DNA of 64,000 nucleotides from Thermodesulfobacteriota bacterium (GTDB lineage: Bacteria; Desulfobacterota_D; UBA1144; Nemesobacterales; JAJCZQ01). Of the stretch, positions 2,782 through 64,000 are shown in pieces (position 1 is the stretch's first letter; every line of letters begins with the position of its first letter). The position numbers were made by a program, and so were the translations under genes. The notes under the pieces were generated by a model, which was given only the letters and a program-made list of their open reading frames with translations, had not been told where the DNA came from and did no database searches. The stretch covers positions 1,024,001 through 1,088,000 of the forward strand of contig OZ244044.1 in assembly GCA_965215275.1 (NCBI GenBank). Direction: 5' to 3'.

Positions 2782-2967
2782 CAACTCAGTCCTTTCAAAG
2801 AAACGTTGAGCTAACTTAGGCCCTTCCGTCAGATATGATCCTGTTAAAAACATCGTCTTTGTTCACTCAGCATAGCTGCCTGTATAATCCCCAGTATTTT
2901 ATCAAGACAGAGGTCCTTTCCTCTTGAAACTTTAAACAACTGATATAGGGTTTTATAATATACGGTC

Positions 2968-4563: not shown

Positions 4564-4788
4564 AACCTTTGTTATAGTCCAGCCCTGATATCATCTTTTG
4601 GGAACTATATAGGAAAGTTGACAAAAATGAGGGGATTACCCTGAACGGTTGACAGGCTGTATTTTACCTTTATTATTATCAGTGGGAACTGAATACCGTC
4701 AATTACAGTGAACGGGATAAAAAGAGAATGATCCGTGCGTCCTGAATATCATTGTCATTGCAGGAAAGGAAAGAAAAGGAAATTACAC

Positions 4789-4818
4789 TTGACATTCGTT
4801 CATAATACGAAGTAAAAT
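4789..4818 (+). promoter_or_regulatory. sigma70-type promoter with dyad TTCGT-N7-ACGAA in the spacer
   Basis: TTGACA 4789-4794, TAAAAT 4813-4818, inverted repeat 4795-4811. Confidence 0.65.
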
Positions 4819-4827
4819 ATCAGTGTT

Positions 4828-8379: not shown

Positions 8380-9257
8380 GGTCCTTTCAGGGACGTTCAT
8401 GAGAGAGGACCGCGTAATGGTCCTCCCATGTACCCGTCCGCTTAAGGTAAAGGCAGCGTTACCGCGCACTGGACCGTCCCTGTATTCTGATGAGACGACG
8501 GGAGAAGCAGAGGAAGGCATCAGCACGGGTGATCTTCCGGACGTTCCGTTTACTTAGGTATACCGTTCCCCGTTATAATCCCGTTGTCAGCGTTCCCGGC
8601 AAGATACCTTTACAGGGAAAGGGAGCAGGTAGATATAAAGGCAGGTACACGTCCGGGGATCAGTCCTGAAGGTCTGAAAAGGTTCCGTATCGTGTAATTC
8701 AGCCATGGGGAGGCGTTCACGGTTCCTGGAACGGGAGGAGTTCAACGTCATGGACACGCGGACTTGCCGCTTCGGGGAAAGCGGGGACCCTGACCGAAGA
8801 AGGCAGGGAAGTGATCAGGGTTATACTGACCATGCCGACCGGTCTGAGACAGATAAGGATAAGGTCAGTAAAGGAAAAATAAAAGGTAAACCTCGGGTGA
8901 AACCTGCCGCCGCTGATCATAAAGGAAAAACAACGGGCAATGGATAGATCATCAAGGATGTTTTTAAAAACGGGATAAATCCCGCATAAACGACCTGAAA
9001 AAAACAACTAAATAAGAACTGAACAAAAGGTTTAAATTGGCAGCAGGTCCTAAAGGAGATCATTTTATAAAAGAAGTTAATGATCAAAGAAAATTATGGG
9101 ACCTGTCAACTTTCCTTTATAGTTTCCCATCTTTCATATAAGATGGGAACATTAAAAAGACGGTACAGATTGACACCTTCGTAATATACATATATTATTA
9201 AGGTCAGTGGTTTCTCTAACAGAGTTCTGAGATAAAAACAGGCTTTATCTTTTAGAC

Positions 9258-12785: not shown

Positions 12786-12897
12786 CCTTTTAAGTTTCCG
12801 TCAGCAGCCGGTTCTTCAACTACATTGCTTTAACAGCCGTTAGTTCTTATACTTTTCTTTGGTTTTTACTCATTCACGGTCACATTACTGCAACGTT

Positions 12898-17555: not shown

Positions 17556-17672
17556 CGTCCTTATCTGATCATGTATTTAAGATCTGCCGGTAATTATAAT
17601 TGGGACTTATATACTTTAGTACCCAACAAAAGATTTAACAGATAAATAGTATTGTAATATAATTACAGAGGA

Positions 17673-19064
17673 ATGGATAGTGAAAAGAGGATAATTAAGC
17701 AGACGAGGACGGAACGCAGAGTGGCTGGATTGAATCACCCTTCAACTCATAAGGGTTTGGAAAGGACTTTGGACCAGCTTACCTATCTGTATAACAGCGC
17801 TCTGGAAGAAAGGAAAGAAGCGTACAAAAAATACAAGAAGCTGAAGAAGTGGGGTTTGTCAGAAGAAAGATTACAGATGTATTTCTACCCACAATGGGAG
17901 TTTGGTACTTCTTACAACAAGAAGAACAGAGTTAAATATCTGGATACAGTTTATGAAGCAGTTAACAGGTTAGTAAGTAATATCAGACCTTGCGATGATC
18001 CTGTTAACTGGAGAGAGTTAACAAAACAGGAGCTAAAGAAGAAGTCAGTCAGTTACGAAGATCAGGCGAAGTCACTGACTGAGATAAGGAATGATGTTTT
18101 ATTGAAAGGATTCAACAAGGCAGGCGTTCAGGGACAGCAAAGGACGTTAAAGAGAGTGGATAAGGCTTACAGTGATTATATTAAAGGATTGAGAGGCAGT
18201 CCGAGATATAAGAACAGCAGCAGGAAGGTAAGAAGTTTTGAAACATATACATGGGGAAATGTAAAGAAAGGTGAGAGAAGGACATATTTAACGGTAAAGG
18301 GAGTTGGGAGGATCTCATTCAGAGGAAGCATACCGGAAGGAACAAAATACATAAGGATATTAAGAACAGCTTTAAGAGTAGAGATCCAGTTTATTTACGA
18401 AACAATAGCTGGAGAGGACAGAGGACTGGACAGACCTGTAGGAATGGACCTTGGAGTAAGGAACAGGATTGCTTTATCAGATGGGTCGTTTTACAAGGGA
18501 ACTGAAGTAAGCAGAAAGAAAGACAAAAGAAAGCAAAGAGCAGTTTCAAGAGCTGAGAAAAGTTCGAACGGCAGAAAGAAGAAGATAAAGCTGCTTGGGA
18601 AGGAACATGCAAGAACAGCAATGAAGGAACATAACAAAGTTCACAGGTTAACTACAGAACTGTCAAGAGCGTATAATTTTGTTATATCAGAAGATCTGAG
18701 ATTAAGGGATATGAGCAGATCGGCAAAGGGGAACGTGGGAGATCCGGGTAAGAAAGTAAAGCAGAAATCTGGATTAAACAGGTCCTTACGGGAACAGCAA
18801 TTGGGCAAGGTATTAAATCAGCTTGAATACAAGGTTAAAAGCACTGGTGGCAAGCTGATCAGGAACCCGGCTCAATATACGTCACAGACCTGTTCTGAGT
18901 GCGGATACAGAGATAAAAGGAACAGAAAAGGAGAAGTATTTAAGTGTGTGTATTGCGGTCATAAAGACCATGCAGACACGAATGCAGCTATAAACATTTG
19001 CAATAGTGAAAAGACACTATGTCGGGTGGGACAGCCAGACTTGAGTTCCCGATGCAAGCTGTAA
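17673..19064 (+). CDS. tnpB: RNA-guided endonuclease TnpB family protein
   Basis: N-terminal YLYNSALEER helix, GSPRYK, RuvC-I GMDLG, RuvC-II ISEDL, KSGLNRS, YTSQTCSECG/CVYCG zinc finger, RuvC-III HADTNAAINI. Confidence 0.93.
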   Translation: MDSEKRIIKQTRTERRVAGLNHPSTHKGLERTLDQLTYLYNSALEERKEAYKKYKKLKKWGLSEERLQMYFYPQWEFGTSYNKKNRVKYLDTVYEAVNRLVSNIRPCDDPVNWRELTKQELKKKSVSYEDQAKSLTEIRNDVLLKGFNKAGVQGQQRTLKRVDKAYSDYIKGLRGSPRYKNSSRKVRSFETYTWGNVKKGERRTYLTVKGVGRISFRGSIPEGTKYIRILRTALRVEIQFIYETIAGEDRGLDRPVGMDLGVRNRIALSDGSFYKGTEVSRKKDKRKQRAVSRAEKSSNGRKKKIKLLGKEHARTAMKEHNKVHRLTTELSRAYNFVISEDLRLRDMSRSAKGNVGDPGKKVKQKSGLNRSLREQQLGKVLNQLEYKVKSTGGKLIRNPAQYTSQTCSECGYRDKRNRKGEVFKCVYCGHKDHADTNAAINICNSEKTLCRVGQPDLSSRCKL

Positions 19065-19154
19065 ATGTTTTATCAAAAGAGAACGGGGAATTAAGAGGGA
19101 CTCTGCTTGCAGAACAGTATGTTTAGTACTTGTGTACTAAAGTATATAAGTCCC
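19020..19154 (+). ncRNA. Putative omega-RNA scaffold overlapping the tnpB 3' end
   Basis: Position typical of TnpB omega-RNAs. Stems: GTCGGG/CCCGAT (19021-19053), TGCAAGC/GCTTGCA (19053-19059 with 19105-19111), TTTAGTAC/GTACTAAA (19122-19141). Boundaries are inferred. Confidence 0.5.
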
Positions 19155-19204
19155 TTATAAAGCCGTTATTGACTTTGATAAGTTACTTCTTATTATTCCT
19201 GACT

Positions 19205-24068: not shown

Positions 24069-26163
24069 GTGAATAAACATTTAAGAGAAAAGTTAGAAAA
24101 AATACTAAAGCGGGAAGAGATGTTTTTAGACGATGAGACCGCGGAGCTTGATTATATAAGGATCAAACACTCTGCGGATCAGAACGATGAGAAACTTCTC
24201 TCACTCCTGTATGACGATGAGGAATTGAGAGAAAAATTCTTTACCAAAATAAAGGATATATATGTTTTCAGCACTGATAACTTCAAATTTTTTCTGGATG
24301 AAAACAAGATAGATAACTCATACACACAACTTGCTAACAGAATTGGTCTTCATGATGGCAGTGAGTTTCTTAAAAACAGAAATGAGGTGGTGATCAATTT
24401 TCCATTTAAAGACTGTGTACTACAGGGCGGGCAAAGTGCTGAAGAAGGAATGGATACTTATTTTGAATATGAAGAAGAAAAGACAAAAGCCGTACAAGGT
24501 GAAAGAGTAACCGAACCATCAGGTTACAAAGAAAAAAACCACCCAAGAAAAGAGGTATTTTTCAACTCTGTTTTAGCCCACGATGAGATAGACAGGCTCT
24601 TTGATCCCAAGGCACTGGTAAACTGGAAAAAAGTTACCAAGGACGGGGCATTTTCCCCTTATATGAAAGAGCAGTCCGAAAGGATTGACGGGGGGGGGGA
24701 GAAGTCTTCGAACGAGATGAAGACGGAACGATCAAAGAGAATTTGATCATTAAGGGCAATAATTTACTCGCTTTACATAGTCTCAAAAAACAGTTCACCG
24801 GGAAAATCAAGTTAATATATATTGACCCGCCTTATAACACTGGAAACGACAGCTTTAAATACAACGATAGTTTCAATCACTCCACTTATCTGACCTTTAT
24901 GAAAAACAGGTTGGAGGTAGCAAGGGAATTATTAAAGGAGGATGGGGTGATCTTTGTACAATGCGATGATAACGAACAAGCGTATTTAAAGGTATTGATG
25001 GATGAAATATTTGGGAGAGAAAATATCAACAGCGTTATTTCAATAAAAGTAGCCTCAGAAAGTGGTGTTAAAGTCAATGCGAACAAACCCGTACGAGTAA
25101 AGGAGCATATTTTAGTTTTTACTAAAAGCCTTGATTTTAAGTACAAAAAGCAGTTTATTCCAATAAATTCTTTTGACAAAGCTTATTCTGACTACGTTGA
25201 AAATCCAAATGACGACCCTGATAAATGGATAATTGGAAATATAAAGACCGTTTACAGAAAAGAAAATGGTTTAGATACAAGAGCACCTGTTGCAGATGCT
25301 GATTTATATAGATTTCAAGTAAAAAACAAGGATAAAGTTTTTGCTCGTAAAGATATAAGCCAACCATTAAAAAAAAGGTTTGGAGATAATCCTAATCAAT
25401 TTATTATAGTGGAGAATAAGAATGGAACAAAGTCTATACTGTGGAAAAAAAGAGAAGTAGTGTTTTATTCCAGAAAAGTTCACACAGTTGATGGAGCCTT
25501 ATGTGGTACAAAATACTTAAGCGATATGTGGACAGACACAACTTGTGATGGCATTGCTAATGAAGGAAACGTTAAACTGAAAAGAGGCAAGAAACCAGAA
25601 AGATTATTAAAAAGGATTATAGAGATGAGCACAGAGAAAAATGACATTGTGCTGGATTTCTTTTCAGGCACTGGAACTACTTGTGCCGTTGCTCATAAAC
25701 TACACAGGCAGTATATCGGTATTGAGCAATTAGATTACGGAGAGAATGACAGTAAGGTCAGACTTCAAAACGTCATTAATGGGGACAGGACAGGTATCTC
25801 AAGATCTGTAAACTGGTTGGGGGGGGGTATTTCCTCTACTGTGAACTTGCCAAATGTAACGAACTGGCAAAAGAGCAAATCAACGCTTGTAACAATTTAG
25901 GCGAGTTAGAAATTTTCTTTGATGAAATGTATGAGAAGTATTTCCTAAACTACAACTTCAGAATCAAAGAATTCAGAGAGCAAGTCGTAGGGAAGGAAAA
26001 CTTTAAAAACCTATCTTTGGACAAACAAAAAAGAATGTTCCTCATCATGCTTGATCTCAATCAATTGTACATAAATAAAACAGAAATGGCCGATGAAAGG
26101 TTTGAGATTACTCAAACGGACCAGCAATTAACGGAAGAGTTTTATAATTCCCATAATAAATGA
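24069..26163 (+). pseudogene. mod: Type III R-M methyltransferase Mod (N6-adenine, beta class), split into three frames at G10 and G9 tracts
   Basis: IYIDPPYNTG and DFFSGTGTT motifs. One extra G at 24690-24699 gives GGEVFERDEDGTIKENLIIKGNNL; one extra G at 25819-25827 gives WLGGGYFLYCELAK... running into ORF 25927-26163. Confidence 0.88.
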
Positions 26164-28919
26164 CCATGGACAATACAGAAAATCTCTACAAAACGATAAA
26201 ACTGGAAAAAGAAGCCGTAAAAAAATTCCCCCCGGAAATTGTTGAAATCCCTGAGTATATTACAAACAACTTAAAGCACAGTTTTTTTGAGTGGCAAAAA
26301 GACGCTTTTGAAAATTTTTTGTACTACCAAAATACAAAATCAAAAGATTTAAAGTTACCTTCTCACCTCATGTTCAACATGGCAACGGGAACAGGAAAAA
26401 CCCTGCTTATGGCCGCCACCATTTTGTACTATTACAAGCAAGGGTACCGTCATTTTATTTTCTTTGTAAATCAAAAAAATATCGTTGACAAAACAGAAAA
26501 TAATTTTATTGACAGCACCCACACAAAATATTTATTTACTGGAAAGATCGTCATTGATGATAAAACGGTAAATATTAAAAAAGTAGAAACCTTTAGTGAT
26601 AAACCACAGGAAATAGAAATTAAATTTACCTCCATTCAAAAGCTCTATAACGATATTCACATAGAAAAAGAAAATCAGACCACTTTAGACGATCTGCACA
26701 GCAAGGATATAGTCATGCTGGCCGATGAAGCTCATCATCTCAATGTAAACACAAGAAAAGGACTACACTTGATACAAGAACTGAAAAATAATGCGGGCAA
26801 GGAAAAAATAGAAAGAAAAGGCTGGGAAGATACCGTTATAAAACTCATTTTGAATAAAAACGGCAAAACAGAAAACAATAAGAACGTTTTACTGGAGTTT
26901 ACGGCAACTATCCCGGCAACCGAAGCCGTTGCCAGAAAATACCAAGACAAGATCATCTATCAATTTGGCCTTAAAGAATTTTTAAAAGCGGGATACACAA
27001 AAGAAATAAACCTTATTTCGTCAACACTAGAAAAAAAGGAACGGATACTGCAAGCACTTCTTTTCCAATGGTACAGGCATCAAATCGCATTGAAAAATAA
27101 AATACCGAACTTTAAACCGGTAATTCTATTCAGAAGTAAAACCATTGAAGAATCAAAAAGGGACTATGAAGAATTTCTGACAATAATAAGAGATCTTGAG
27201 GAAAAAGATTTTAATTTCCTGAATGGTATTAAAGATAGATTTACCGAAAGTGAAAACACCTACGAACAAGGCAAATCAAGAGTGGTAGATTTAATTAAAC
27301 TTATTGAAAATACAGGTCTGTCTGATGTCATACACTTTATAAAAAGTAACTTTACTGAGCGACAGTGTATGATCACAAATTCAAAAACCAATAGGAATCA
27401 ACAGGAAAAAACCGATGAAAATCAGGAAAAACTGCTCAACAACCTTGAGGACAAAACCAATCACATACGAGCTATCTTTACAGTAAACAGACTGACCGAA
27501 GGCTGGGACGTGTTAAACCTGTTTGATATTGTGAGACTTTATGAAGGAAGAGATGAAAGCAAGGATAAAACAGGAAATCGCAAGGCTGGAAGTGCAACCG
27601 TGTCTGAAATTCAACTTATAGGAAGGGGAGTAAGGTATTTTCGTTTTGCTTATAAAGATAAAATCAAAAACAAAAGAAAGTTTGACGGTGACCTCGGTCA
27701 CGAATTAAGAGTATTAGAAGAACTTTACTTTCATTCAACAAACAATCACAGATACATTGATGAACTTAAAAGAGAATTAAAAAAAGAGGGTTACATTCCG
27801 GATAATAGAAAGATCAGGACTTTTGCTCTTAAAAAAGAATTTCAAGAGGACAATTTCTACAAAAATACAAAAATCTGGTACAACAAGCAAATTGATAATC
27901 CCGACAGAAAAAAGAAAACGCTGCAAGGTCTTAATACAGATTCCTTTGAACCATATAAAGCCAGAGGTCTTGAATTGAACGAGCAGGAAATAGACTTTGA
28001 AAGCGAAAAAGATCTACAAAGACTATACCTGCGAAAAAATGGACTAAAAACGATTGCACAAAAATTCAAAGACATTGAAAAACACATTTTTCAAAAAGCG
28101 GTCAATATAAAAGCAAATAATGAAAACTCGCTATATCGATTTGAAAACATAAAAGAAGAACTGGACATTAAAAGTATTGAAGAACTGCAAACGGATAAAC
28201 TGGCTGATCTTGATGTAAAGATGATCGTTAATAAAAATATGGATTATGACCACATAGATAACGCAGACAAACTTGCAGCAGTGATAAAGTTCCTAGATAA
28301 CGTTTTCGCACAGTTAAAAGAATCCATTACTCCCAAGATCGGGGATAAATTTATAGCCGATAAATTTGAAAAATTCTTTGCACTGCCAAAAACAAAAACC
28401 ATTCAAAAAGACTGTGAATCAGAAAAAATTGCCGAAGAACTGAAAAAGAAAAAATGGTACGTTTTAGACTCTTTCTATGGAACAAGTGAAGAAAAAGCAC
28501 TTATAGATTTTATTAAAGAAACGATTGGCAATCTAAAGGATAAATACAAAGAAGTGTACCTCTTGAGAAATGAAGAAGTTTATAAAATCTACGACTTTGA
28601 GAAAGGCAGGGGTTTTCAACCAGATTTTATCCTCTTTTTAAAAACGAATAAAAAAGAAGATATTGGCGACTTCAGAACAGAACTTTACTATCAAGTATTT
28701 ATCGAGCCGAAAGGCGGTCAATTTATTGGCGATAAGGGAACATTCAGATCAGGAAAAGAGGGATGGAAAGAAGAGTTCTTAAAGCAGATCACTGAAAAAT
28801 ACGGGTTTAATAACATTATAGAAGCAGAAAATCCCCATTATCGTTTAATTGGATTGCCATTCTTTAATAAAGACCACAATAATGAATTCTCCAGCGAATA
28901 CGAAAAATTGATAAATTAG
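26160..28919 (+). CDS. res: Type III restriction endonuclease Res subunit (DEAH helicase-like ATPase + PD-(D/E)xK nuclease)
   Basis: MATGTGKT, LADEAHH, LTEGWD, QLIGRGVR, FQPDF...IEPKG. Overlaps the mod stop; AT-rich. Confidence 0.9.
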   Translation: MTMDNTENLYKTIKLEKEAVKKFPPEIVEIPEYITNNLKHSFFEWQKDAFENFLYYQNTKSKDLKLPSHLMFNMATGTGKTLLMAATILYYYKQGYRHFIFFVNQKNIVDKTENNFIDSTHTKYLFTGKIVIDDKTVNIKKVETFSDKPQEIEIKFTSIQKLYNDIHIEKENQTTLDDLHSKDIVMLADEAHHLNVNTRKGLHLIQELKNNAGKEKIERKGWEDTVIKLILNKNGKTENNKNVLLEFTATIPATEAVARKYQDKIIYQFGLKEFLKAGYTKEINLISSTLEKKERILQALLFQWYRHQIALKNKIPNFKPVILFRSKTIEESKRDYEEFLTIIRDLEEKDFNFLNGIKDRFTESENTYEQGKSRVVDLIKLIENTGLSDVIHFIKSNFTERQCMITNSKTNRNQQEKTDENQEKLLNNLEDKTNHIRAIFTVNRLTEGWDVLNLFDIVRLYEGRDESKDKTGNRKAGSATVSEIQLIGRGVRYFRFAYKDKIKNKRKFDGDLGHELRVLEELYFHSTNNHRYIDELKRELKKEGYIPDNRKIRTFALKKEFQEDNFYKNTKIWYNKQIDNPDRKKKTLQGLNTDSFEPYKARGLELNEQEIDFESEKDLQRLYLRKNGLKTIAQKFKDIEKHIFQKAVNIKANNENSLYRFENIKEELDIKSIEELQTDKLADLDVKMIVNKNMDYDHIDNADKLAAVIKFLDNVFAQLKESITPKIGDKFIADKFEKFFALPKTKTIQKDCESEKIAEELKKKKWYVLDSFYGTSEEKALIDFIKETIGNLKDKYKEVYLLRNEEVYKIYDFEKGRGFQPDFILFLKTNKKEDIGDFRTELYYQVFIEPKGGQFIGDKGTFRSGKEGWKEEFLKQITEKYGFNNIIEAENPHYRLIGLPFFNKDHNNEFSSEYEKLIN

Positions 28920-49994: not shown

Positions 49995-50050
49995 GTCAGT
50001 TGCCTGAAGTTAACTTCAAGGGTAGTTTATTATCCGGAGAGATATCGACC

Positions 50051-50488
50051 ATGAAAACAGCCACTTTAGTCTTATCGTTAATTTTTCTTTTCCTTACAGC
50101 TTCCTGCAATAAAGGGTGGCAGGACCCGAACACGACGGTGCCGGCGTCGGAGCTTCCAGTTGCAACCATTGTGGCAGCCCCTAACGCGTTCAACGGAGCT
50201 GGGGTTATAGTCAAGGGAGTAGTGTGGAACATTGTAAACGACGAGTTTACCTATACGGACAATGGTGATGAGAGGACGGTAAGTTATTCCATGTTCAAGC
50301 TGGCGGATAAGAAAGGGAATTTTGTGACCGTATATACAGAGTCGCTGGAAGATGTAAAGGAAGGGGACCTGATAAAGGTCAGGGGTATTTACAGAAAAGA
50401 TATGAACACGCAGAAAAGATACTACGTTAACGAGATCGAAGCAGTGGACATTCAGGTGATAGAATCGCAGGTAAAAACAAAAGGATAA
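50051..50488 (+). CDS. Lipoprotein, probable OB-fold
   Basis: MKTATLVLSLIFLFLTASC lipobox; beta-rich body (VKGVV, FKLAD, EGDLIKVRG). Confidence 0.7.
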   Translation: MKTATLVLSLIFLFLTASCNKGWQDPNTTVPASELPVATIVAAPNAFNGAGVIVKGVVWNIVNDEFTYTDNGDERTVSYSMFKLADKKGNFVTVYTESLEDVKEGDLIKVRGIYRKDMNTQKRYYVNEIEAVDIQVIESQVKTKG

Positions 50489-50510
50489 AAACGGATAAAC
50501 CCCTGCCGAC

Positions 50511-53046
<2,536 letters not shown>

Positions 53047-53047
<1 letters not shown>

Positions 53048-54633
53048 CAGAATTTGACCTGCGTCAGGGAAATTATATCAGGGATCTTACGTATTTTGTC
53101 CATAAGTTCCTGTGGAACAGGGGAATCAACGTTCGTAAAAACAATAGCCCTTCCTCCGATCTTTTCCCTGCCAAGATGCATAAGACCGATATTTACCCCA
53201 TGCTCGCCAAGCAGGGAGGTCATTGAAGCGATAAATCCCGGCTTGTCATAGTTCTCACTGTAAAGCATATAACCTTGAGGCTTTACGTCAACTGATATAC
53301 CGTTCAGCAGGACAAATCTCGTCTCACCCCGGCCAAATATCGTTCCGGATACCCTGGTTTCCGCTTTCGAAGTAATAACGGTAACGTTTATAAGACTGGT
53401 AAATTCATTTGCAGTTTCCGTTTTTGATTCTATCACCTTAATACTGCGCTCCCTGGCTATGACCGGAGCATTAACGTAAGTGACGACCAGGTCCATCATG
53501 GGAGAAAGAAAACCCTTGAGCGCTGCCACGGTAAGGGGTTCGGTGTTCAGTTTTGATACTTCTCCTGCAAATTCTATCCGTATTTCCTTAACGGCACCTT
53601 TACATATCTGTCCATGAAGGCTTCCGATCTTTTCCGCAAGGTTCAGGTAGGGTTTTAAGGACTTTAGCTGCTCAAGGTTCAGTGACGGCATGTTCACGGC
53701 GTTCCTTACGACACCGTCCGTGGCAAAATCAACCATCTGCTCCGCGATAGCAACCCCGACCTTTTTCTGAGCTTCCTCGGTCGATGCTCCAAGATGAGGA
53801 GTGTGTACTATGTTGTCATCAACCGTGAGGAGCGGGTCCCTGCTTTCAAGTGGTTCAGAGGAGTAAACGTCCATACCGGCACCGGCTATTCTGCCCTTTT
53901 TCAGTGCATCGACCAGATCCCGTTCATTAACGATGCCTCCTCGTGCACAGTTGATTATAAGAACGCTCTCTTTCATTTTAGCTATACTGTCCGCATTTAT
54001 CAGATCTTTTGTGTCCGAAGTAAGGGGAGTATGTATGCTTATCACGTCGGATCTTTCCAGCAGTTCGTCAAGTGAGACAAGTTGAACGCCCAGTTTGGCA
54101 ACGGCTTCCCGGGTCAGAAAAGGATCATAGGCGATCGCCTTCATCTTTATTCCGATAGCACGTTCTGCAACCAGCTTGCCTATGTTGCCCAGACCTATGA
54201 ACCCAATTGTCTTTCCATACAGTTCAACTCCCTTGTACTTGCTCCTTTCCCATTTTCCCTTTGCAAGGGAGCAATGTGCCTGCGGTATGTTCCTTGCAAG
54301 TGAAAAAAGAAGGGCCAGGCTGTGCTCCGCCGTCGTGATAGCGTTTGCTTCCGGGGTGTTCATAACGACTATACCGTTCCTCGTGGCCGTTTCCACGTCA
54401 ACGTTATCCACACCGATGCCAGCTCTGCCTATTATCTGTAAATTACCCTCGGAGGCCTCTATTACTTCCTTTGTGACTTTTGTGGCACTTCTTACTATCA
54501 GTCCCTGATAGCTTTTTATCTCCGTCAGAAGTTCTTGTGGCGAAGTCTTCTTGTTTACGACCAGGTCTACGTTTGCCGCCCTGATGATATTCTCACCTTT
54601 CTCAGAAAGGCCGTCAGTGGCCAATATTCTCAA
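53047..54633 (-). CDS. serA: D-3-phosphoglycerate dehydrogenase
   Basis: GRAGIGVDNVD, GLGNIG, INCARGG, TPHLGAST, C-terminal ACT. TTG 54633 has a GGAGG RBS. Confidence 0.95.
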
Positions 54634-54759
54634 ATTACACCTCCGGAACTGGTAGGTCTGATAAAACCTGTAAAATATATGCGAGACTGGGATTTTGTCA
54701 ATTGAAAAAACGGACACGGATAACGGTCGTTTGATCATTAAAAAACTCCGGGCTGGTTA

Positions 54760-55530
54760 ATGCCCGGCGATTTAGTTAACATTCATAAAGCAATGACAGA
54801 GCAGAAACTGATGAACTTTCTGGATCACGTTCAGGAACTCAGAAAAAGGGTCCTTTACGTGCTGATAGCTGTTTTTATATTTTTCATACCGGCTTATTTC
54901 TTCTCAAAGGAAATATTCTCTTTTCTTATGACCCCTATAATCGCAAACCTTCCCAGTGGCAGTTCGATGATATTCATCAGACCAGCTGAAGGGTTTATAA
55001 CTTATTTAAAAGTATCGATCTTTGCTGCCTTCGTTCTTGCCTTTCCCGTTGTTCTTTACCAGGTATGGAGCTTCATATCCCCTGCTCTGTATAAAAGAGA
55101 AAAGAGGATACTGCTTCCCTTTCTTCTGTTCGGAACGATATTTTTTCTCTCCGGCGGTCTGTTCTGCTACTACGTTGCGGCACCAAAGGGATTTGGATTT
55201 TTACTTGGCGAGTATTCAAGTGAATACGTAAAGGCATTTCCAACTATCAGGGAAGGATTATCTTTCCTGATGTCGCTTATGATAGGGTTCGGGCTGGTTT
55301 TTGAATATCCGGTCGTGGTGTTCATGCTGTCAAGATTTGGACTTATCACAGGCAGCTGGCTGAGAAAGCAGAGAAAGTACGCATGGCTTGTAAGTGCAGT
55401 TGTAGCAGCATTTATCACTCCGACGACCGATGCCGTATCAATGATGTTCATGCTCGTGCCCCTGTTCATCTTTTATGAACTGGGAATTTACGTTGCACTG
55501 ATATTCGGCAGAAAAGAACGGGCAGAATAA
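54760..55530 (+). CDS. tatC: Twin-arginine translocase subunit TatC
   Basis: HVQELRKR, WSFISPALY..E, FGLVFEYP, ITPTTD. Start may be 54793. Confidence 0.94.
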   Translation: MPGDLVNIHKAMTEQKLMNFLDHVQELRKRVLYVLIAVFIFFIPAYFFSKEIFSFLMTPIIANLPSGSSMIFIRPAEGFITYLKVSIFAAFVLAFPVVLYQVWSFISPALYKREKRILLPFLLFGTIFFLSGGLFCYYVAAPKGFGFLLGEYSSEYVKAFPTIREGLSFLMSLMIGFGLVFEYPVVVFMLSRFGLITGSWLRKQRKYAWLVSAVVAAFITPTTDAVSMMFMLVPLFIFYELGIYVALIFGRKERAE

Positions 55531-55587
55531 GTGATCCGGCAGAACCGGTCCACCCGTGATCCGAAGGACTGACCCAATGATATCAGA

Positions 55588-56595
55588 TCAGTTACCCAGC
55601 TTTTTTGGAGCAAGCCTGGTCAGGGTTTCCACTATCTGCTCTCTGGAGGCTTTGAACGGGAACATCAAGACAGGACAGTCAACTTCGGACCATAAAGCAT
55701 GCAGTTTTTCCAGAGCGTCTTCCTGCAGGCCGTTTACAGATACGGTATTTGTCAGTTCATCACTGACGCACTTTACCGCAGCCTCCATATCCCTCCTGCC
55801 CCATGCCTCCTTAACTCCGGAGGCGTCGGTCTCAAATCCGTAGCTGCTCACCAGTCTGTTGTAGTAAGGTCCCATTGCACCTACGTAAAACGCAATGAAC
55901 TCCTTCAACCTGTAATTTGCCTGTTCCTGATCATCCGATACCAAAGCCGGTACGTAGGGATAAACCGAAACGTCCTTCACGGCCCGCCCTGCCGTCAGGG
56001 AGGCTTTTTCAACTACATCCCTCAGCTTTATCAGATGACCCACGGGACAGAGGAACGGCAGCCATCCATCGGCGACCTCTCCGGTCATCTGCAGATTTTT
56101 AGGACCGAGCGAGGCAAGATATACGGGAACGTTCCTTCTTACAGGTTCGGACTGCAGCCTGAAGTTTCTGAGCCTGAATATCTCTCCCTCGTAATTTACC
56201 CGTTCACCGCTTAAAATAAGCCTTATTATCTCAACGTATTCCCTGGTCCTCTGAAGAGGTCTTTCATGCCTGGTTCCATGCCAGTTCTCATTTACCAGAC
56301 TGGTGCTTGAACCAAGTCCGAGCACGCTCCTTCCGCCTGATATCAGATCAAGCGTTGCTATGGTCTGTGCCATTACCGCGGGACTTCTGCTGTATATGGA
56401 AACTACACCACTTCCGAACTTTAAACTGTCCGTGTTATGAGCGATCGTTGCCAGTAACGTAAACGCGTCATTTCCCCAGGTTTCAGGAACCCATATGGAA
56501 TCGTAACCAAGCTCTTCTGCAAGTTTTGAGTAAAAAACGACCCCATCCCTGTCGATAGTAGCCCAGTTTGGAAGAACAAAGGCCAGTTTTGACAT
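55588..56595 (-). CDS. LLM class flavin/F420-dependent oxidoreductase
   Basis: AEELGYDSIWVPE, RSPAVMAQTIATLD.ISGGR, GEVADGW. Confidence 0.88.
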   Translation of the reverse strand: MSKLAFVLPNWATIDRDGVVFYSKLAEELGYDSIWVPETWGNDAFTLLATIAHNTDSLKFGSGVVSIYSRSPAVMAQTIATLDLISGGRSVLGLGSSTSLVNENWHGTRHERPLQRTREYVEIIRLILSGERVNYEGEIFRLRNFRLQSEPVRRNVPVYLASLGPKNLQMTGEVADGWLPFLCPVGHLIKLRDVVEKASLTAGRAVKDVSVYPYVPALVSDDQEQANYRLKEFIAFYVGAMGPYYNRLVSSYGFETDASGVKEAWGRRDMEAAVKCVSDELTNTVSVNGLQEDALEKLHALWSEVDCPVLMFPFKASREQIVETLTRLAPKKLGN

Positions 56596-56689
56596 ACAGG
56601 TACTCCTTTTTTTATTTGAATATCTTGCTGTAAAATAAGAACATAATCAAATTTGCCCGTTTATATGAATTAAAAACAAGGAGAGAAAG

Positions 56690-57901
56690 ATGAGAACGTT
56701 ACCTTCAAGGATGCAGGACAGACTGTACAACGATCAGTTCATCCCGAGCGAAACACTCAGGATGCGGAAAAAATACAGACGCTTTGCCGAAGAAGAGCTG
56801 TTCCCACAGGCATATCAGATCGGTCAGAGGACCGAGGATAATGATAACTTCCCATGGAAGCTTTTCAGATCAATGGCAGAAAAAGGTTTTTTCAAAGTGC
56901 CTTTTAAAAAATCGGAAGGAGGACTGGGATTAAAATATCCAGCCTGTGCAGCAGCAGTTCTTGCAGAGGAACTGGCCTACGTAAGTGCCAGTTTCGCAGG
57001 GTCTGTAAATGCTCATTTTCTGCTTGCGGGAAAAAGTATCAGTTTCGGTTCTGAACACATCAGGAAAAAATATCTAAAACCACTTCTGCAGTGCAGATCG
57101 GTGGGAGCTTTTGCAATGACGGAACCACAGTCGGGATCAGACGTAAGAGCGGATTCACTGATAACAAAAGGGATCAGAAAAGGAAAAAAATACATAATAA
57201 GCGGTCAGAAGAGATATATAACGAACGCAGGGATTGCAGATTACGTTTCAACGCTCGTAAACATTGAAGGCAAGTCCTGCATGCTTGTAATTGATCTGAA
57301 CTCCGAAGGATGCAGAGTAGGCAAGCCGGACAAAAAACTCGGTAACAGAGGGGAACTGACTTACGACATATATTTTAACAACGTTGAGGTTCCCAGGGAA
57401 AATCTGATCGGCAAGGAAGGGGATGGGCTTAAGGTCTGTATAGGTGCCCTGATGTACGGAAGGACGGGAATTGGAGCAAGCGGAACAGGAATGGCACAGT
57501 CGGCTTTTGACGAATGTTCTCAGTTTATGAATAAAAGGGAGGCTTTCGGAAAAAAGATAAACCAGTTCCAGCACTGGCAGTTCTTAATGGCAGAAAGGGC
57601 AATAGAGATCGAGAATGCCAGAAATCTGTATATTAAAAGTGCTCTTGCTATCGATCAGGGAAACAGCTTCCCCGTGATGCTGTCGTCGGGAGCAAAATTC
57701 TACGGTTCGGAGATATCGGTCACTATGGCAAGGGATGCCGTGCAGATATTTGGAGGGTTGGGACTGATGGTCGAACTGGGACATGACGACTCCACTTACA
57801 AGGTTGAAGAGATATACAGAGATTCAAAAGTCGGGGAGATATATGAAGGATCTAATGAAATTCATAAAATGCTTATCGCAAGGGAGATATTTAATTCCTG
57901 A
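56690..57901 (+). CDS. Acyl-CoA dehydrogenase
   Basis: FAMTEPQSGSD, GQKRYITN, AVQIFGG, EIYEGSNEI. Confidence 0.93.
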   Translation: MRTLPSRMQDRLYNDQFIPSETLRMRKKYRRFAEEELFPQAYQIGQRTEDNDNFPWKLFRSMAEKGFFKVPFKKSEGGLGLKYPACAAAVLAEELAYVSASFAGSVNAHFLLAGKSISFGSEHIRKKYLKPLLQCRSVGAFAMTEPQSGSDVRADSLITKGIRKGKKYIISGQKRYITNAGIADYVSTLVNIEGKSCMLVIDLNSEGCRVGKPDKKLGNRGELTYDIYFNNVEVPRENLIGKEGDGLKVCIGALMYGRTGIGASGTGMAQSAFDECSQFMNKREAFGKKINQFQHWQFLMAERAIEIENARNLYIKSALAIDQGNSFPVMLSSGAKFYGSEISVTMARDAVQIFGGLGLMVELGHDDSTYKVEEIYRDSKVGEIYEGSNEIHKMLIAREIFNS

Positions 57902-58010
57902 TGTTGAACTGAAAAAACATTGACTGCCGCCGAAAAACGCTTTTTAAATAGGGAATTATATATTTATCCACTTGACATTCGTTTATAATACGAAGTAAAA
58001 TATAAATGTT

Positions 58011-61000
58011 ATGAAAAATTTCATGAAAAATTCAAACATAAAAACACGTAGTTCCATTACCCCCCCCCCGTGTATACGTGACCTTTCATCTGGATATAAG
58101 TATTTTTTAAGAACAATGTTTAAGATAACCCCCCCCCCCATCTAAGTCATTACTAACCTTAGTCTTATTTATTCTGTGTTTGATAGTAATAGCTGCAAGA
58201 GCAGAGAGCAGCCTGGAAGAAACATTATCTGAATGCAGAGGTATGAGTGCAGATGTGGAAGATCCGTTATACGGATGTCAGTGGCATCTGAAGAACACTG
58301 GGCAGTTTATTTATTCAGGAAAGGAAATAACAGCAGGAGAAGATATAAACATAGAAGGAGTGTGGAACGAAGACGTATACGGTACCGGAATTAACGTAGC
58401 AATAGTAAGTGACGGTATCGACCTTTCACATGAGGACCTTTCTGCAAACGTCCGTTCCGGACCGAACTATAGTTATTCTGAAAGAAATAATTCTGAAGAG
58501 AACAGTTCTGAAAAAGATAGTTCAGAAAGAGATGATCTTTCAGACGGTTCATCCTTTACCGGAACACGAGCGGCAGGTGTTATTGCAGCAACTGGATATA
58601 ACGGACTGGGAGTAAGAGGAACAGCACCGGGTGCGAGTATATACAGTTACAGGTTATCCGGTGATCTCAGGGAAGCGGACGCGGTGGTCCGTAATAAGGA
58701 AATAACAGCTGTATCGGTTAACGGCCTGGGATCTGAGGACGGAGCTTTTTTTCAGGAGGCTTCAACTTCCTGGGAAGAAGGAGTGGAACTTGGAATAAGT
58801 AAAGGGTTTTATGGTAAAGGAGTGTTTTACGTCTGGGGAGCAGGGGACGGTCATGAAAGAGGAGATCAGGCTAATTTTTCTGAATATTCTAATTACTACG
58901 GCGTAACTGCCGTTTGTTCAACTGACGGTTTTGGAAAAAAGAGTATTTTTTCAGAAGAGGGAGTAAATCTATGGGTATGTGCACCTGGTTCTGATATTGT
59001 AACTACTGATAACAAAAACGATTACGTTGTAACTTCCGGAACATTTCTATCAGCTTCACAGGTTGGAGGAGTGGCAGCACTGCTGAGAGAGATAAACGGG
59101 AATCTGAGCTGGAGGGATATAAAGCTTATACTTGCGGGTTCAGCACGGCAGAACGATTTTTTTGATCCGAGCTGGGAGACTGGAGCTGTTAAATACGGTT
59201 CTGATACGGAAAGATATAATTCTAATCCTAAGTATGGTTTTGGCGTGGTAGACGCAGAAGCAGCTGCAGAACTTGCAAAAAGCTGGAAAGGCGTTGGAGA
59301 GATGAGGACCATTACAGCTTCTTCAGATAATGAACTGACAATTCCTGATGGAGATGGAGAAGCGGACGGGGTCCTTGTTTCCAGACTTATGATACCGGAC
59401 CTTGAAGAGGTAACATTTACGGAGTTCGTTGAAGCTGAGCTTGTTCTTTCGTGTGACTGCTTACAGGACCTTAATATACAGATAACCTCTCCTTCCGGGA
59501 CAGTATCTGAACTTGTGCGGGAGGTTGTAAGGGGATCTTCGAATGAAGAAGAAAACTGCGTCAGTTACCTGAGAAGAACACATCGTTTCGGGTCGGCAAG
59601 ACACCTCGGAGAAGACCCTTCCGGAGAATGGATCCTTCATATAACTGATACTGCTTATGGAGATGAAGAAAATGAAGAAAACACCGTTACCCTGCACTCA
59701 TGGAGCGTTAAGGTGTATGGACATTTTTATCAGGGATCTGGCAGTGAGATCACTCCTAAAGCTTTAACCTTCGGCGGTGCGACGATCCCAACCCAGAATT
59801 ATTTTGTAGGAGAAGCAATAACACCAGTAATGCTGCCTGAGGCAACCGGGGCAAGCGACATAACATACAGTTTTAATCCTGCTTTAGCAAGAGGATTGGA
59901 ATTTGATCAGGATACCCGAACTATAAGCGGAACACCAGCTATTACTCATGTGTCAGGTCGTTTGTATTCATATGTTGCAAGAGGTGGCGGACGGATTGTA
60001 ACTATACCTTTTACTATTAGAATTAGCCCTCGACGAGTGCCGACCTTCGGCAATCAGACGGTAGAAAATCAGGTTTTTGTTAATGGTTCAGCAGTAACGT
60101 TAACTCTGCCTCAGGCTACCGGAGGTAACGGAACTTTAAATTACAGTTTAACTAATAGTATAGGTGATCCAATTAAAATTAATGGATTGGATTATAACGA
60201 AAACACCAGAACGTTAAGTGGAACGCTCAACGTTTCTCCAAGTGGATTACCTATAACTCAAACTTATACCTACAAGGTAACTGATGATGACGGTGATTCT
60301 GACAGTATTACTTTCTCTATTACTATAACGGACCTGGCCTTTGAACACTATCCTCTAACTCATCTGATTTTTGTAGCAGGGAGGCAAGTAACACCACAAG
60401 TAGAGCTACCTGAAGCAACTGGAGGGACTGCTCCATTAACTTACAGTTTAACTCCTGATTTACCTCTTGGATTGAGTTTTAATGAAGTTACGCGGGTTAT
60501 AAGTGGCACACCAACTATTGGGATATCTGATACTGATTATACATATACTGTTACTGACGCAGATGGAACTACGGTGGAGTTTACATTTATTGTTCAGATA
60601 AGAGCAAGTTTTGATAATGTAACGATAAATAATAAGGTGTATATAGTCGGTACAGCAGTAACGGAAGTGCTGCCTGAGGCAATTGGACATAATGAAACGG
60701 TAACCACCTACGGTTTAACCCCTACATTACCAGCTGGACTGGACTTTAACACGGCTACCCGAGAGATAAGAGGAACACCGACTACTGCAACGTCTGAGAC
60801 TATGTATACATACAGAGTAGATGACGGAAATGGATTCACTAATGACGATTTAACTTTCAGTATCACGGTAAGGGATGCAACTGTACCTACTTTCAGTGGT
60901 GAGACTATAGATGATCAGGAGCATACAGCAGGGGTTCAGATAACACCAGTAACGCTGCCTGAGGCAACTTCAGGAGATGCTCCGTTAACATACCGTTTAA

Positions 61001-61851
61001 CCCCTGCCTTGCCTGATGGATTGATCTATAACAATATCACCGGAGTTATAAGCGGAACACCGACTGCTGCAATGTCTGAGACTATGTATACATATACAGT
61101 AACGGATAATGATGGAGATACGGATGAACTGACGTTTAATATTGAGGTAGCAGCAAGCTTCAGCAACGTAACGATAGAAGATAAGGTGTATATAGCAGGT
61201 ACAGCAGTAACGGAAATGCTGCCTGAGGCAACTGGACATAATGGAACGGTAACCTACAGTTTAACCCCATCATTACCAGCTGGACTGGACTTTAACACAG
61301 CTACCCGGGAGATAAGTGGAACACCTTCTGCTGCAACGTCTCAGACTACTTATACATATACAGTTACTACTGGTGCAGGAGGACCTGCACGAACTTTGAC
61401 ATTCAGGATAACGATAGAAGAAGACAGCGAACCGGACTTCAGCGTGACGACGATAGAAGATCAGGTGTACATGGGGAGATCAATAAGGTTGCCGGTAGCA
61501 ACGGGAGGGAATGCACCGTTAGTATACAGTATAACGCCTCCCTTACCTCCTAGGTTGAGATTGGACAGAAACACAGGGGTCATAAGCGGGACGCCCGCGA
61601 GTGCGTCGTCTGAGAGGACCTACACGTACACGGTAACGGACAGGGACGGAGACATGAAAGAGTTGACCTTCAGGTTCAGTGCAGCGGCTCCGCCACCGAC
61701 AGGTAGTGATCCAGGCGGAGGTGGAGGAGGATGTGCTGTATCAGAGCAGAGCAGTGTTGATGAAGATATTCTCGGAGTAATGGCATGTCTGATGCTTATA
61801 CCTGTATCAGTAGTTATCAGAAGGAAAAGAAGAGCTCAGATAAAGATGTAG
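58011..61851 (+). CDS. S8 subtilase homolog (triad substituted) + P-domain + 7 putative Ig repeats + sorting signal; frameshifted at C11 (58129-58139)
   Basis: The ATG58011/ATG58116 frame stops at 58143-58145. Removing one C joins it to the main frame and restores the signal peptide seen in gene 2. Motifs: IVSDG, FTGTRAAG, SGTFLSASQVGG, GGGGGGC-TM-RRKRR. Confidence 0.87.
58471..58530 (+). repeat. 4 x 15-bp degenerate tandem repeat (SYSER/NNSEE/NSSEK/DSSER)
   Basis: agttattctgaaaga, aataattctgaagag, aacagttctgaaaaa, gatagttcagaaaga; absent from gene 2. Confidence 0.8.
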
Positions 61852-62182
61852 TAATGCGGTCCTTTCTTAGGACACTTAACTAACTGAGATCTTTCCCATC
61901 AGAATATCTGCTGGCTGCTTATGGAAGAAGCTATATATCTTTGTTAAAGTCCTTTTTTGATATTCAATTTTCTTATTACCACAAGGATTTAACTACAAGG
62001 TTTTCCACCCGATACGAATATAATCTTGTTAAAAACATCTTTTTTATTCATTTGGCGCAGTTACATATATTATTCCCTTTTAAATAACTGTAATTCGTAA
62101 CGACCTTATTATCTGCCCACTGCTTCATTTACATAACTTTCTATATCGGGAATTTTCGTGCAATGTATAAAATATAATAAAA

Positions 62183-62201
62183 TATTACAACTCTTGTAAT
62201 A
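62183..62201. promoter_or_regulatory. Palindromic operator candidate upstream of the XRE gene
   Basis: TATTACAA-ctc-TTGTAATA, overlapping the direct repeat TAATAAAATATTACA (two copies). Confidence 0.55.
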
Positions 62202-62230
62202 AAATATTACACAGCTACAATACTGCCATT

Positions 62231-63040
62231 ATGATCCGGTCAAAGGAACTTGGGGAAAAAATAAGACGGTTAAGACAGGATAATGAGTTGTCTCAGGCAG
62301 AATTAGCCAGCGCTGTTGGTGTAAGCAGGGAAGTTATATCTAACCTTGAAAACGGTTTGAGAATGCCGAAGTTAAATGAGATAAACAGGTTGTCCGAACT
62401 TTTTAGCTGCTCCATTGATGATCTGATAAGTAACAGAGAGAGCGTAAAGATAATCGTAAAAAAAGACAATAAAAACAAGCAAAAGAAAGAGACTTTGAGA
62501 ATAAACGTGCCTCAGAAAAACCTCAGAAAGTTCAAAGAGGTGCTTCTGTACGTTCTGAGCAAGGTAGGTGCAAAACCAAACATAGGTGAGTCAGTTATAC
62601 AGAAGATGCTTTACTTTATTGACTTTGATCATTATGAAAAATACGAAGAGCAGTTGATAGGAGCAACTTACATAAAGAACAAATACGGACCCACACCGGT
62701 CGAGTTCCAGAAAGTCACAGGTTATATGATAGAACACAAAGATATAGTTAAACTTAAAAAAAATCATTTCAATTACGAACAGACAAAGTACCTTCCCTTG
62801 CGTAACGCCGACCTCACGGTTTTGAACGCAAACGAAGTGGAGACTATTAATAATGTCCTTGTAAGATTATCTGATATGAACGAAGATCAGATCTTACGGT
62901 ATTCACACAATGACATACCTTGGCTTGGAACCGAAGATGAAAAGACGATTGATTATGAAGCCGTTTTTTACAGAACTCCCGCATACTCAGTAAGACCACA
63001 TATTGAAGAAGATCAGAACGGAAGAGCTAACGGATTTTAA
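62231..63040 (+). CDS. XRE helix-turn-helix fused to DUF4065/SocA (Panacea-like) antitoxin domain
   Basis: LSQAELASAVGVSREVISNLENG HTH; KMLYFIDF, YGPTP, SH..IPW motifs. Confidence 0.82.
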   Translation: MIRSKELGEKIRRLRQDNELSQAELASAVGVSREVISNLENGLRMPKLNEINRLSELFSCSIDDLISNRESVKIIVKKDNKNKQKKETLRINVPQKNLRKFKEVLLYVLSKVGAKPNIGESVIQKMLYFIDFDHYEKYEEQLIGATYIKNKYGPTPVEFQKVTGYMIEHKDIVKLKKNHFNYEQTKYLPLRNADLTVLNANEVETINNVLVRLSDMNEDQILRYSHNDIPWLGTEDEKTIDYEAVFYRTPAYSVRPHIEEDQNGRANGF

Positions 63041-63369
63041 AAAAGACCTTAAAAAACTGATAAAAAGATTCCGAACGCTCGAAGAAGACCTGCAAATCTT
63101 TATCCAGTATCAGTTGAACCCGTTTCATCTTATGGGTCAGGACAGCAACGGTATAAAGCGCATAAGTGGTCTGGGGATCAAGAACCCTGAAATATACAAA
63201 ACAAGAAAGTTTGCATGTAAGTCGTTAAAAGGAAGGGGAAATAAATCTGGAATAAGAGTTGTTTACTCTTATCTTTAAAGACGAAGACAGGATCGAACTC
63301 GTTGAGGTCTACTTCAAGGGCGATAAAACATCAGAGGACAGAGATCGTATCAGAAAACTTTATGGTTAA
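63003..63369 (+). pseudogene. RelE-like toxin, frameshifted near 63275
   Basis: FKKDLKKLIKRF...IYKTRKFACKSLKGRGNKSGIRVVY, then a stop at 63276-63278. The C-terminus KDEDRIELVEVYFKGDK...LYG* continues in another frame. Confidence 0.72.
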
Positions 63370-63422
63370 TCCCTGACGCAGTAAAGATAATGCAGATCGA
63401 AATTCTTTATTAAAGAATAAAG

Positions 63423-63448
63423 TCACCCCCTGAAAATACAGGGGGTGA
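63423..63448. terminator. Hairpin between convergent genes
   Basis: TCACCCCCTG-aaaata-CAGGGGGTGA. Confidence 0.75.
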
Positions 63449-63458
63449 TATAATGATA

Positions 63459-64000
63459 TTAATTAGTTGGACAGGATGATCGACGCTCAGCAAATACAAC
63501 ACCAACAGCAGAACCTTCTAAACCATCCTCCAAGGTAATACTGTCTTCAAATGCCCCTCCCTAGGTACCTGCAAGGTATCCACCATTACTTCCAAAGAAC
63601 TGAGCTCCCCAATTCCCGGTAGCATTTGACCTAGTTCCTGGAATGTTTTCTATAGCAGTAGTTCCAGAATAAAGCAATTCGTTTCCACCTGATCCCGCTG
63701 TAGCTTGCTCAAGAATTACCCTAACTGTAGTTTGACCAGGAATTCCTTCTATACCGGTAATTAAACCACGTATAGTTCCATCATCTGCTAGGGTCAAAAC
63801 AGCCACTCCTTCCAGTCTTATATGATGAGAAGTCACTCCATTTGCACTAACGGTATAATATACTATAGCATCACCTGTATAACACGTGTCTGCATTTACA
63901 CTTGGAATATCTGTCTGTGGAGTTTCACTTTCAGTTAATTCATCTACAGCCATTCCCCAGACCTCGCCATAAGTCCATATACCAAATACTAATCGGTCGC
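63459..64000 (-). pseudogene. C-terminal part of a TbpB-like beta-barrel surface lipoprotein with an internal TAG; 5' end lies outside the window
   Basis: Frame open from the window edge (FGIWTYG..., TCYTGDA, GNWGAQFFG, LAGT*). After TAG 63561-63563 it continues GGAFEDS...SAVGVVFAERRSSCPTN*. Confidence 0.55.

Follow-up and report, generated by a model that had tools for sequence, protein, structure and literature searches.

A likely mobile insertion cassette with IS1595-type ends carrying a member of a 57-gene surface-protein family in a Thermodesulfobacteriota genome

Mobile insertion cassettes (MICs) are, as far as described in PMC4337579, passenger genes held between transposon-type inverted repeats, lacking a transposase, bordered by a target duplication and served by a cognate transposase encoded elsewhere; the MICs of transcription activator-like effector (TALE) genes in Xanthomonas and MIC231 of Bacillus cereus are the closest precedents for the locus described here. 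This locus is a 4.1-kb unit (57951-62077) in a 64,000-nucleotide stretch, hereafter the window, of the single-contig 1.99-Mb genome of a Thermodesulfobacteriota bacterium (G000:C1:1024001-1088000). Judged by its sequence, the unit has the three features by which a MIC is recognised, and it is interpreted as a transposase-less cassette with IS1595-type ends that was likely inserted whole by an IS1595 transposase acting in trans, with a probability of about 0.82. Indeed, a surface gene lies between IS1595-type ends and is cleanly missing in a close strain, and therefore it likely jumped with an enzyme encoded elsewhere in the genome.

As in the TALE family, a multigene family of repeat proteins is involved, in which some members have two ends and others a solo end. 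According to PMC4337579, 45% of TALE genes lie in MICs, with 20 further solo ends, and the MIC ends are of the 92-bp Tn3 type with 5-bp repeats; here 9 of 57 genes are in complete cassettes, 32 of 57 have at least one strong end, and the ends are of the ~25-bp IS1595 type with 8-9-bp repeats. Unlike TALE MICs, the unit encodes a predicted membrane-anchored pseudoprotease with poly-C runs, present in 57 copies in a 2-Mb chromosome, and draws on an end pool shared with solo tnpB genes. The second system for comparison is the transporter insertion sequences (tIS) of the IS1595 family, e.g. MTnSag1/tISSag10 and tISCpe8 (PMC5704250; 10.1101/2021.05.26.445724). IS1595 members are described as having ends of 25 bp and as duplicating 8 bp of A+T-rich targets; for MTnSag1 a circular intermediate is described (PMC5704250; PMC8101967). 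The unit resembles tIS in its 25-bp terminal inverted repeats, its A+T-rich target and its passenger gene, and its duplication, of 8 or 9 bp, may also agree, but it contains no DDE_Tnp_IS1595 transposase with an N-terminal zinc ribbon and is therefore not a tIS; its cargo is also larger and expanded as a family. Such a transposase is encoded in nine other repeat-flanked elements of the genome, and true tIS are present both in this genome and in genome G017. Beyond the papers cited here, a literature search limited to openly available titles and abstract openings gave no paper that describes tnpB, or a surface-gene family of this kind, between IS1595 ends.

The unit is located between an acyl-CoA dehydrogenase gene and a helix-turn-helix (HTH)-Panacea antitoxin gene, neither of which is disrupted (Table 1). 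Its only long open reading frame (ORF) is the 1223-aa cargo, and no transposase match was found inside. The inverted ends agree in 14/16 bases, or in 17/25 over their longer span, and form the core of the longest inverted repeat within 57700-62400, the right end reading GGGAATAATATATGTA inward from 62077. As in IS1595-type elements, the terminal repeat starts with GG and is ~25 bp long, and IS1595 genes with the same terminal 10-13 bp occur elsewhere in the genome. A preliminary description of this DNA had reported the 14/16 inverted ends and a perfect 9-bp direct repeat, both of which were recovered here, and a resemblance of the last ~50 bp to the region after gene 1 of the window, which was likewise found (62027-62077 aligns with 2842-2892, 73% over 60 nt). 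The six end variants that it listed are all in the window (2892, 4600, 9127, 17602 and 19154, 57951, 62077). Its consensus, GGRNNYTATA, holds in that paired ends exceed chance, but the 10-mer is loose (631 matches versus 214-274 in shuffled DNA); the right end of the unit deviates from it by one base, and the actual end is ~25 bp long and starts with GGGRAYTATA. The direct repeat is either 9 bp long or 8 bp with one additional base at the left end, and the empty site described below is compatible with both registers; across the genome 8 bp is the most frequent length, and one autonomous IS1595 copy likewise has 9.

Table 1. Coordinates of the 4.1-kb unit, its signals and the related elements in the window.
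Feature	Position	Strand	Remarks
Left copy of the target-site duplication, TTTTAAATA	57942-57950		9 bp, or 8 bp plus one extra element base
Left terminal inverted repeat, IS1595 type	57951-57975	+	Begins GGGAATTATATATTTA; best of nine IS1595 elements is genome 1812584-1815955 (18/25)
Putative sigma-70-like promoter, TTGACA-N18-TAAAAT	57972-58001	+	Inside the cassette; 11/12 consensus matches; 2 sites versus 1.8 in shuffles
Leader frame from first ATG	58011-58145	+	Ends just past the second C run
Poly-C run, C10	58060-58069	+	
Poly-C run, C11	58129-58139	+	Likely slipped-strand switch
Cargo gene, 1223 aa	58180-61851	+	S8 subtilase, P domain, ~8 Ig-like (He_PIG) repeats, Gly-rich linker, hydrophobic C-terminal tail
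Family-shared 3' tail including right terminal inverted repeat (62053-62077)	62027-62077	-	Homology among family members
Right copy of the target-site duplication, TTTTAAATA	62078-62086		Direct sequence match to left copy
Sister cassette, same gene family (gene 4828-8379)	4600-9127	+	Flanked by 8-bp repeat CATCTTTT/CATCTTTC; an older right end lies further in, at 8570
TnpB-only cassette (tnpB 17673-19064)	17602-19154	+	Same-type ends; flanks match at 6/8 bases
Remaining right end with the family tail, behind gene 1 (481-2781)	2842-2892	-	Older, fixed; left end decayed, no repeat

Seventeen sequencing runs contained part of 50000-58100, and five of them (X5 to X9) were compared as assembled contigs. 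In X6, contig record 9 (18,423 bp, depth 16.6) carries 52000-57941 at record positions 8886-14826 and 62078-64000 at positions 6973-8885, with zero letters between them; it differs from the window at 100 of 5,942 and 70 of 1,923 positions, i.e. it belongs to a ~98%-identical strain. This allele lacks exactly the element and one repeat copy, while the single other repeat copy stays, so that an empty site, the absence of which from relatives the preliminary description would have taken as a refutation, exists, in clean form, in a close strain. Furthermore, contigs of X6 and X7 link 4598 to 9139 with 5 letters between, the sister cassette being absent; these letters are read here as one copy of its 8-bp repeat. 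They also link 17601 to 19155 in the absence of the TnpB cassette, with 12 different letters between, and therefore this third site is not in a clean single-copy state. The outer flanks of gene 1 (1-207 and 2704-4598) are present in X6 contigs, an X5 contig is identical to 61995-62596, i.e. the occupied right junction, and the contigs of X8 and X9 are too fragmented to bridge the borders of the unit.

The cargo belongs to a large family: a tblastn search gave 58 matches, 57 of which span the end of the S8-P region, for a total of 171 kb, or 8.6% of the genome. This query detected no S8-family member in 30 relatives at E<=1e-30, some of these genomes being incomplete. Among the 120 matches listed from other assemblies, two proteins share 74-76% identity and the rest at most 55%; in distant metagenome homologues (38-43% identity, four long loci, L150-L153), a convergent end pair was present in none. 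Strong inward ends, at least one per gene, were detected at the strict threshold in the 32 paralogues mentioned above. At the strictest threshold, inward ends flank 17/57 paralogues on the left and 17/57 on the right, versus 7 and 5 for outward ends and 10% and 7% for control genes (n=664). Homology between the flanks of paralogues terminates at the end motif in 20 of 53 cases on the 3' side and 14 of 57 on the 5' side, versus 2.2% at random positions. On a quick tree the nine repeat-flanked copies are dispersed over the family (8 changes, shuffle mean 8.6). The best sign that whole cassettes may have moved is given by the sister cassettes at genome 1028600 (window 4600-9127) and 1496306-1500591, which have the same ends (95.6% identity over 201 nt and 98.9% over 557 nt) in different repeats. 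The ends of cassette 4600-9127 also match those of a truncated insertion sequence (IS) at genome 1100815 at 47 of 50 positions. The IS1595-end route thus probably helped to scatter the 57-gene family.

The coding part of the cargo is a mosaic of tracts that share 95-100% identity with one paralogue or another: between 59201 and 60200, four 250-nt windows match the paralogue at 4828 at 100% identity, and other windows are closest to other paralogues. This mosaicism, in which the left part, the middle and the right tail each have a different closest paralogue, would also be expected if an IS1595 element or a MITE (miniature inverted-repeat transposable element) had made the duplication and the surface gene had then entered in place by recombination with a paralogue, the unit never having transposed whole. 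The disagreement of the two unit ends at 8 of 25 positions points the same way, as do the S8 domains of cassettes 1028600 and 1496306, which belong to different subclades between common ends. Such a replacement is nevertheless unlikely: the X6 sites at the unit and at 4600-9127 are cleanly empty and not filled with an IS, the interior of the IS has no long homology to the surface gene, homology between paralogues extends up to the end motifs, and two copies have an identical end type in different repeats.

A somewhat less probable account is that the cassette is an old, immobile insertion which the X6 lineage lost by precise deletion between the repeats, the ends being fossils and the family changing by recombination only. 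This account requires two independent precise losses and a third, less clean one in a single strain at ~2% divergence. The repeat is still perfect, intact transposases are present in the genome, and X6 has not purged the family, since many other members remain there (summed depth up to about 600 versus 16.6 for single-copy sequence). It draws some support from the degenerate ends of the unit, from the lack of a polarity outgroup among the 30 relatives and from the 12 extra letters at the TnpB site in X6, so that some strain differences are not simple insertions.

At the scale of the genome, GGRNNYTATA forms 809 convergent pairs within 15 kb, of which 14 have a perfect 8-bp repeat. When pair frequency was compared with shuffled sequence, as had been proposed, none of 8 local dinucleotide shuffles contained any such pair, and flank permutations (n=500) gave a mean of 0.24 and a maximum of 3. 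Among 129 candidate pairs with at least 13/16 matching ends, perfect repeats number 15 at 8 bp and 2 at 9 bp, with none at 7 or 10-12 bp. A weight-matrix scan (registers 8, 9 and 8+1) detected 39 pairs with at most one mismatch, 23 of them perfect, for permutation expectations (n=300) of 5.0 and 0.44 (max 3), respectively. A stricter 12-mer has 143 occurrences in this genome and its reversed control 7, and none of the 30 relatives has more than 30 occurrences of the 12-mer. The view that such short motifs coincide by chance in A+T-rich DNA between genes, for which the flank composition (71% A+T) and the abundance of the 10-mer in shuffled DNA could be invoked, is dismissed as wholly improbable given the ~8e-5 chance of the 9-mer match for this end pair, the excess of perfect pairs over shuffles and a strain difference that ends exactly at the predicted borders, the empty allele already refuting it.

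Several observations weigh against the insertion of the whole unit in trans. Both ends and the repeat are kept in only nine of the 57 paralogues (three with perfect and six with one-mismatch repeats), and with the loosest threshold left ends face inward (32) about as often as outward (36), without a bias. The ends of the unit are degenerate (17/25, versus 22-25/25 in autonomous copies), and the closest transposase-bearing element agrees with them at 37 of 50 positions, which is the best agreement over the 25-bp ends. About 5 of the 39 end pairs are expected by chance, and many IS and TnpB copies have no matching repeats (16 enumerated), therefore secondary rearrangement is common. Concerning the strains, X6 and X7 come from one study, and a 151-bp X6 contig of depth 2.4 runs across the occupied right junction, so that a minor strain there may carry the element. 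Of the 30 relatives, 12 resemble the locus in part but none keeps both flanks; they therefore supply no empty site and no polarity, and the direction of change is inferred.

The best reading of these data is that of mobile insertion cassettes moved in trans by IS1595 transposases of several lineages and then reshuffled by gene conversion. A DDE transposase would bind both ~25-bp ends and integrate the unit in A+T-rich DNA between genes, cutting the target with a stagger of 8-9 bp; the route would probably be replicative and circle-forming, as suggested for IS1595 members. Successive rounds could have seeded much of the 57-gene family, with most ends decaying afterwards, and copies that became stuck might be remobilised through a fresher end taken from an adjacent IS or MITE. 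Gene conversion among paralogues would reshuffle the coding part, and the poly-C runs would likely toggle copies on and off.

The cargo itself is a predicted pseudoprotease because the positions of the catalytic His, the oxyanion Asn and the Ser read T, D and F (D-T-D-F overall); D-H-N-S is kept by one of the 57 paralogues, five of which are unreadable at some position. A TTGACA-type promoter pattern is also found upstream of 34/57 paralogues. The promoter spacer (57977-57997) contains an imperfect palindrome, TTCGT...ACGAA, which is retained with variation in many paralogues and could be a common operator. The leader is read in a different frame from the signal-peptide-like segment and the main gene, and this cassette copy is predicted to be in the OFF state; in the paralogue at 4828 the leader is continuous in frame. 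In phase-variable contingency genes, homopolymer runs just past the start codon set the reading frame. The poly-C runs near the start would set the frame in a similar manner here, with the difference that the switchable genes are themselves transposable cargo.

The transposases of the genome carry the domains PF12762 and PF12760, and a relative's copy matches NF033547. Nine long frames fit a motif search for IS1595 transposases, eight of them with all three acidic positions. The eight transposases that were compared are 40-95% identical and their elements bear distinct 25-bp ends, which rules out a single transposase for all elements. The earlier suggestion of one transposase family mobilising diverse cargo thus stands as regards the family (IS1595) and the cargo (TnpB and surface proteins), with several enzymes in place of one. 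Gene 1 retains only a right end, at 2892, its left end having decayed and the repeat being missing.

The catalogue of cargo that had been called for comprises 34 curated elements sorted by content, after 5 of the 39 pairs, judged to be chance matches that overlap or span too far, were removed (329667, 794108, 952395 and, at 1273849 and 1610258, the longer pairing). It contains (i) nine IS1595 transposase elements, four with the transposase alone and five longer, the passengers read in two of them resembling methyltransferase, HNH and toxin-antitoxin genes by sequence, (ii) 13 tnpB-only elements, one internally deleted, (iii) nine S8-Ig gene elements, one also with a nested tIS, (iv) two elements with ABC-ATPase-like and tetratricopeptide repeat (TPR) genes, flanked by ~420-bp MITE-like units, and (v) one MITE-sized element. 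At genome 17470-21955 and 1897941-1900957, MITEs bound composite elements that contain an ABC-ATPase-like gene and TPR genes, in each case within an 8-bp repeat. The same end pool thus carries methyltransferase, restriction and toxin-antitoxin passengers beside the transposase, MITE-bounded composites and solo tnpB genes. Two inverted IS1595 copies (genome 1910772-1912064 and 1917021-1918313) have identical 9 bases beside their 3' ends and belong to a cluster (1.91-1.98 Mb) of copies without target duplications, which are signs of IS-driven rearrangement.

Same-type ends with perfect 8-bp repeats were also observed in other genomes. They enclose ankyrin and Panacea genes together with a transposase (L164, G017), fibronectin-III (Fn3) and RTX-repeat genes and a methyltransferase fragment without a transposase (L173, G031), an N6-methyltransferase without a transposase (L157, G033), and two tandem tIS within one common repeat (L167, G017).

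Altae-Tran et al. 2023 (PMC10691335) described six DDE-linked branches of TnpB, DDE-1 to DDE-6, with inverted ends; in DDE-5, a TA motif precedes the element end by 8 bp. The only partner named in the text searched there is IS630, IS1595 appearing once, in a list of hidden Markov models, and the review PMC13565253 gives ISL2, IS630 and IS1031 as DDE partners. The tnpB cassettes of the present genome resemble DDE-5 as described there: tnpB lies between inverted terminal repeats with its 3' end near the element end, solo copies would be mobilised in trans and a motif lies 8 bp upstream; the motif is TA in DDE-5, whereas here it varies by subfamily (TG, TA, GATA). DDE-5 may already be of the tnpB-in-IS1595-ends kind.

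The TnpB of the window cassette scores above the cut-off of NF040570 and below the IS200 and IS607 cut-offs, and the RuvC D/E/D and zinc-finger Cys residues are present in the alignment. According to PMC13565253, IS200/IS605 and IS607 elements have no terminal inverted repeats or target duplication and use a Y1 or serine TnpA. An IS200/IS605 or IS607 identity was rejected for the tnpB cassettes, 13 tnpB units having inverted ends and repeats. Twenty tnpB units of the genome were compared; in four that were measured, only 71-161 bases are non-coding.

In the 407-aa TnpB subfamily, the base immediately 5' of the duplication, on the 5' side of tnpB, is G in 8/8 copies; TG stands there in 7/8, versus 1/8 on the opposite side, 0/21 on either side of non-tnpB elements and a 6% background (binomial p ~4e-7 with 16 dinucleotides allowed for; Fisher p 5e-6). 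Counted in this set are the deleted copy and one whose repeat has two mismatches; a ninth copy, which has no repeat in register, was excluded. The 407-aa copies occur in three end types, and therefore the TG motif follows the cargo. TA was found in 3/3 copies of a 405-aa subfamily and GATA in 2/2 of one 484-aa group. The position of these TAM-like motifs (TAM, target-adjacent motif) fits the required TAM location if the guide starts at the duplicated target.

Genes for tnpB in the same ends with 8-bp repeats were also found in genomes G017, G021, G032 and G033 (Rhodothermales). In G017, G021 and G032 the base before the repeat is G in 7/9 cases on the 5' side of tnpB and in 2/9 on the other; in G033 the counts are 4/4 and 3/4, the TAM-like signal being less one-sided. 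Non-tnpB elements L166 and L173 have TG on 3 of 4 sides, so the signal is not cleanly replicated. A TnpB-alignment scan of the genome collection returned mostly ordinary TnpB: among the matches listed, ends and a repeat were present in one of 69 scorable loci (L123), L070 has ends with an offset repeat, and an IS1595 gene was nearby in 0/80 tnpB loci.

Further observations concern the TnpB elements themselves. All four copies of one TnpB subgroup (window 17602-19154; genome 82022, 772121 and 1695227) are without a clean target duplication. In X6 and X7 the 12 extra letters at 17602-19154 are flanked by two TTATAA-like halves, and an adjacent deletion or a nuclease-related repair is possible. 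An X6 contig fuses the first 31 and last 37 bases of the TnpB cassette (17632-19118) with 6 letters between, giving a ~75-bp minimal MITE. DNA blocks ahead of the right end are conserved across three TnpB subfamilies in the tnpB 3' ends (18965-19154 and nine others). The RNAalifold consensus of these ten ends has 41 pairs, 14 with two-sided change, in sequences that are related and partly coding; as a candidate omega-RNA scaffold this fold is only a lead. In G017, a tnpB cassette (L165) is split by a Mutator-family transposase gene.

Elsewhere in the window, a low-GC type III restriction-modification locus is present at 24069-28919, with the methylase in two frames and an end-like motif at 26152. 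Next to the unit, the HTH-Panacea (SocA-like) antitoxin gene is followed by a RelE-like ORF (62231-63370), frameshifted near 63270 relative to G001 and G005; the Panacea/RelE-like module lies in different genomic contexts in these two genomes. The SecA encoded in the window shares 63-64% identity with the SecA proteins of two genomes, assigned to Candidatus Dadabacteria and to Thermodesulfobacteriota, and a Dadabacteria-like lineage is likely.

In summary, this locus adds to known MICs an IS1595 chassis, 57 genes in 2 Mb, strain-level empty sites, a coupling with gene conversion and poly-C runs, and ends shared with TnpB genes that show a subfamily-specific TAM-like signal. The tnpB cassettes encode compact nucleases of 400-480 aa, for which a TAM is predicted and the start of the guide can be deduced from the duplication, and they are a natural test of the benefit of TnpB to DDE transposons, an association that a 2026 review calls rare and unexplained (PMC13565253). 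Ankyrin and fibronectin-III cargo in same-type ends of related genomes bears on the spread of eukaryote-like repeat proteins among symbionts, if the inferred host association, expected to be with a sponge or another animal, is correct. It is tentatively proposed, as a speculative extension, that the IS1595 end pool could be a general gene-delivery system that, in likely host-associated bacteria, builds and renews by transposition and gene conversion a strain-variable coat of 57 phase-variable pseudoprotease adhesins, and that captured active TnpBs, guided from the duplicated target, might cut the empty allele at their own TAM (TG, TA or GATA) and so restore or spread the cassette, i.e. RNA-guided homing, in at least two phyla, on a DDE chassis that the texts searched do not name. 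Three strain-polymorphic sites lie in one 64-kb window, and therefore strains ~2% apart differ in the content and position of their surface genes; transposition of IS1595-ended cassettes offers a concrete, testable route by which a small genome could acquire and scatter dozens of large, repeat-rich surface genes.

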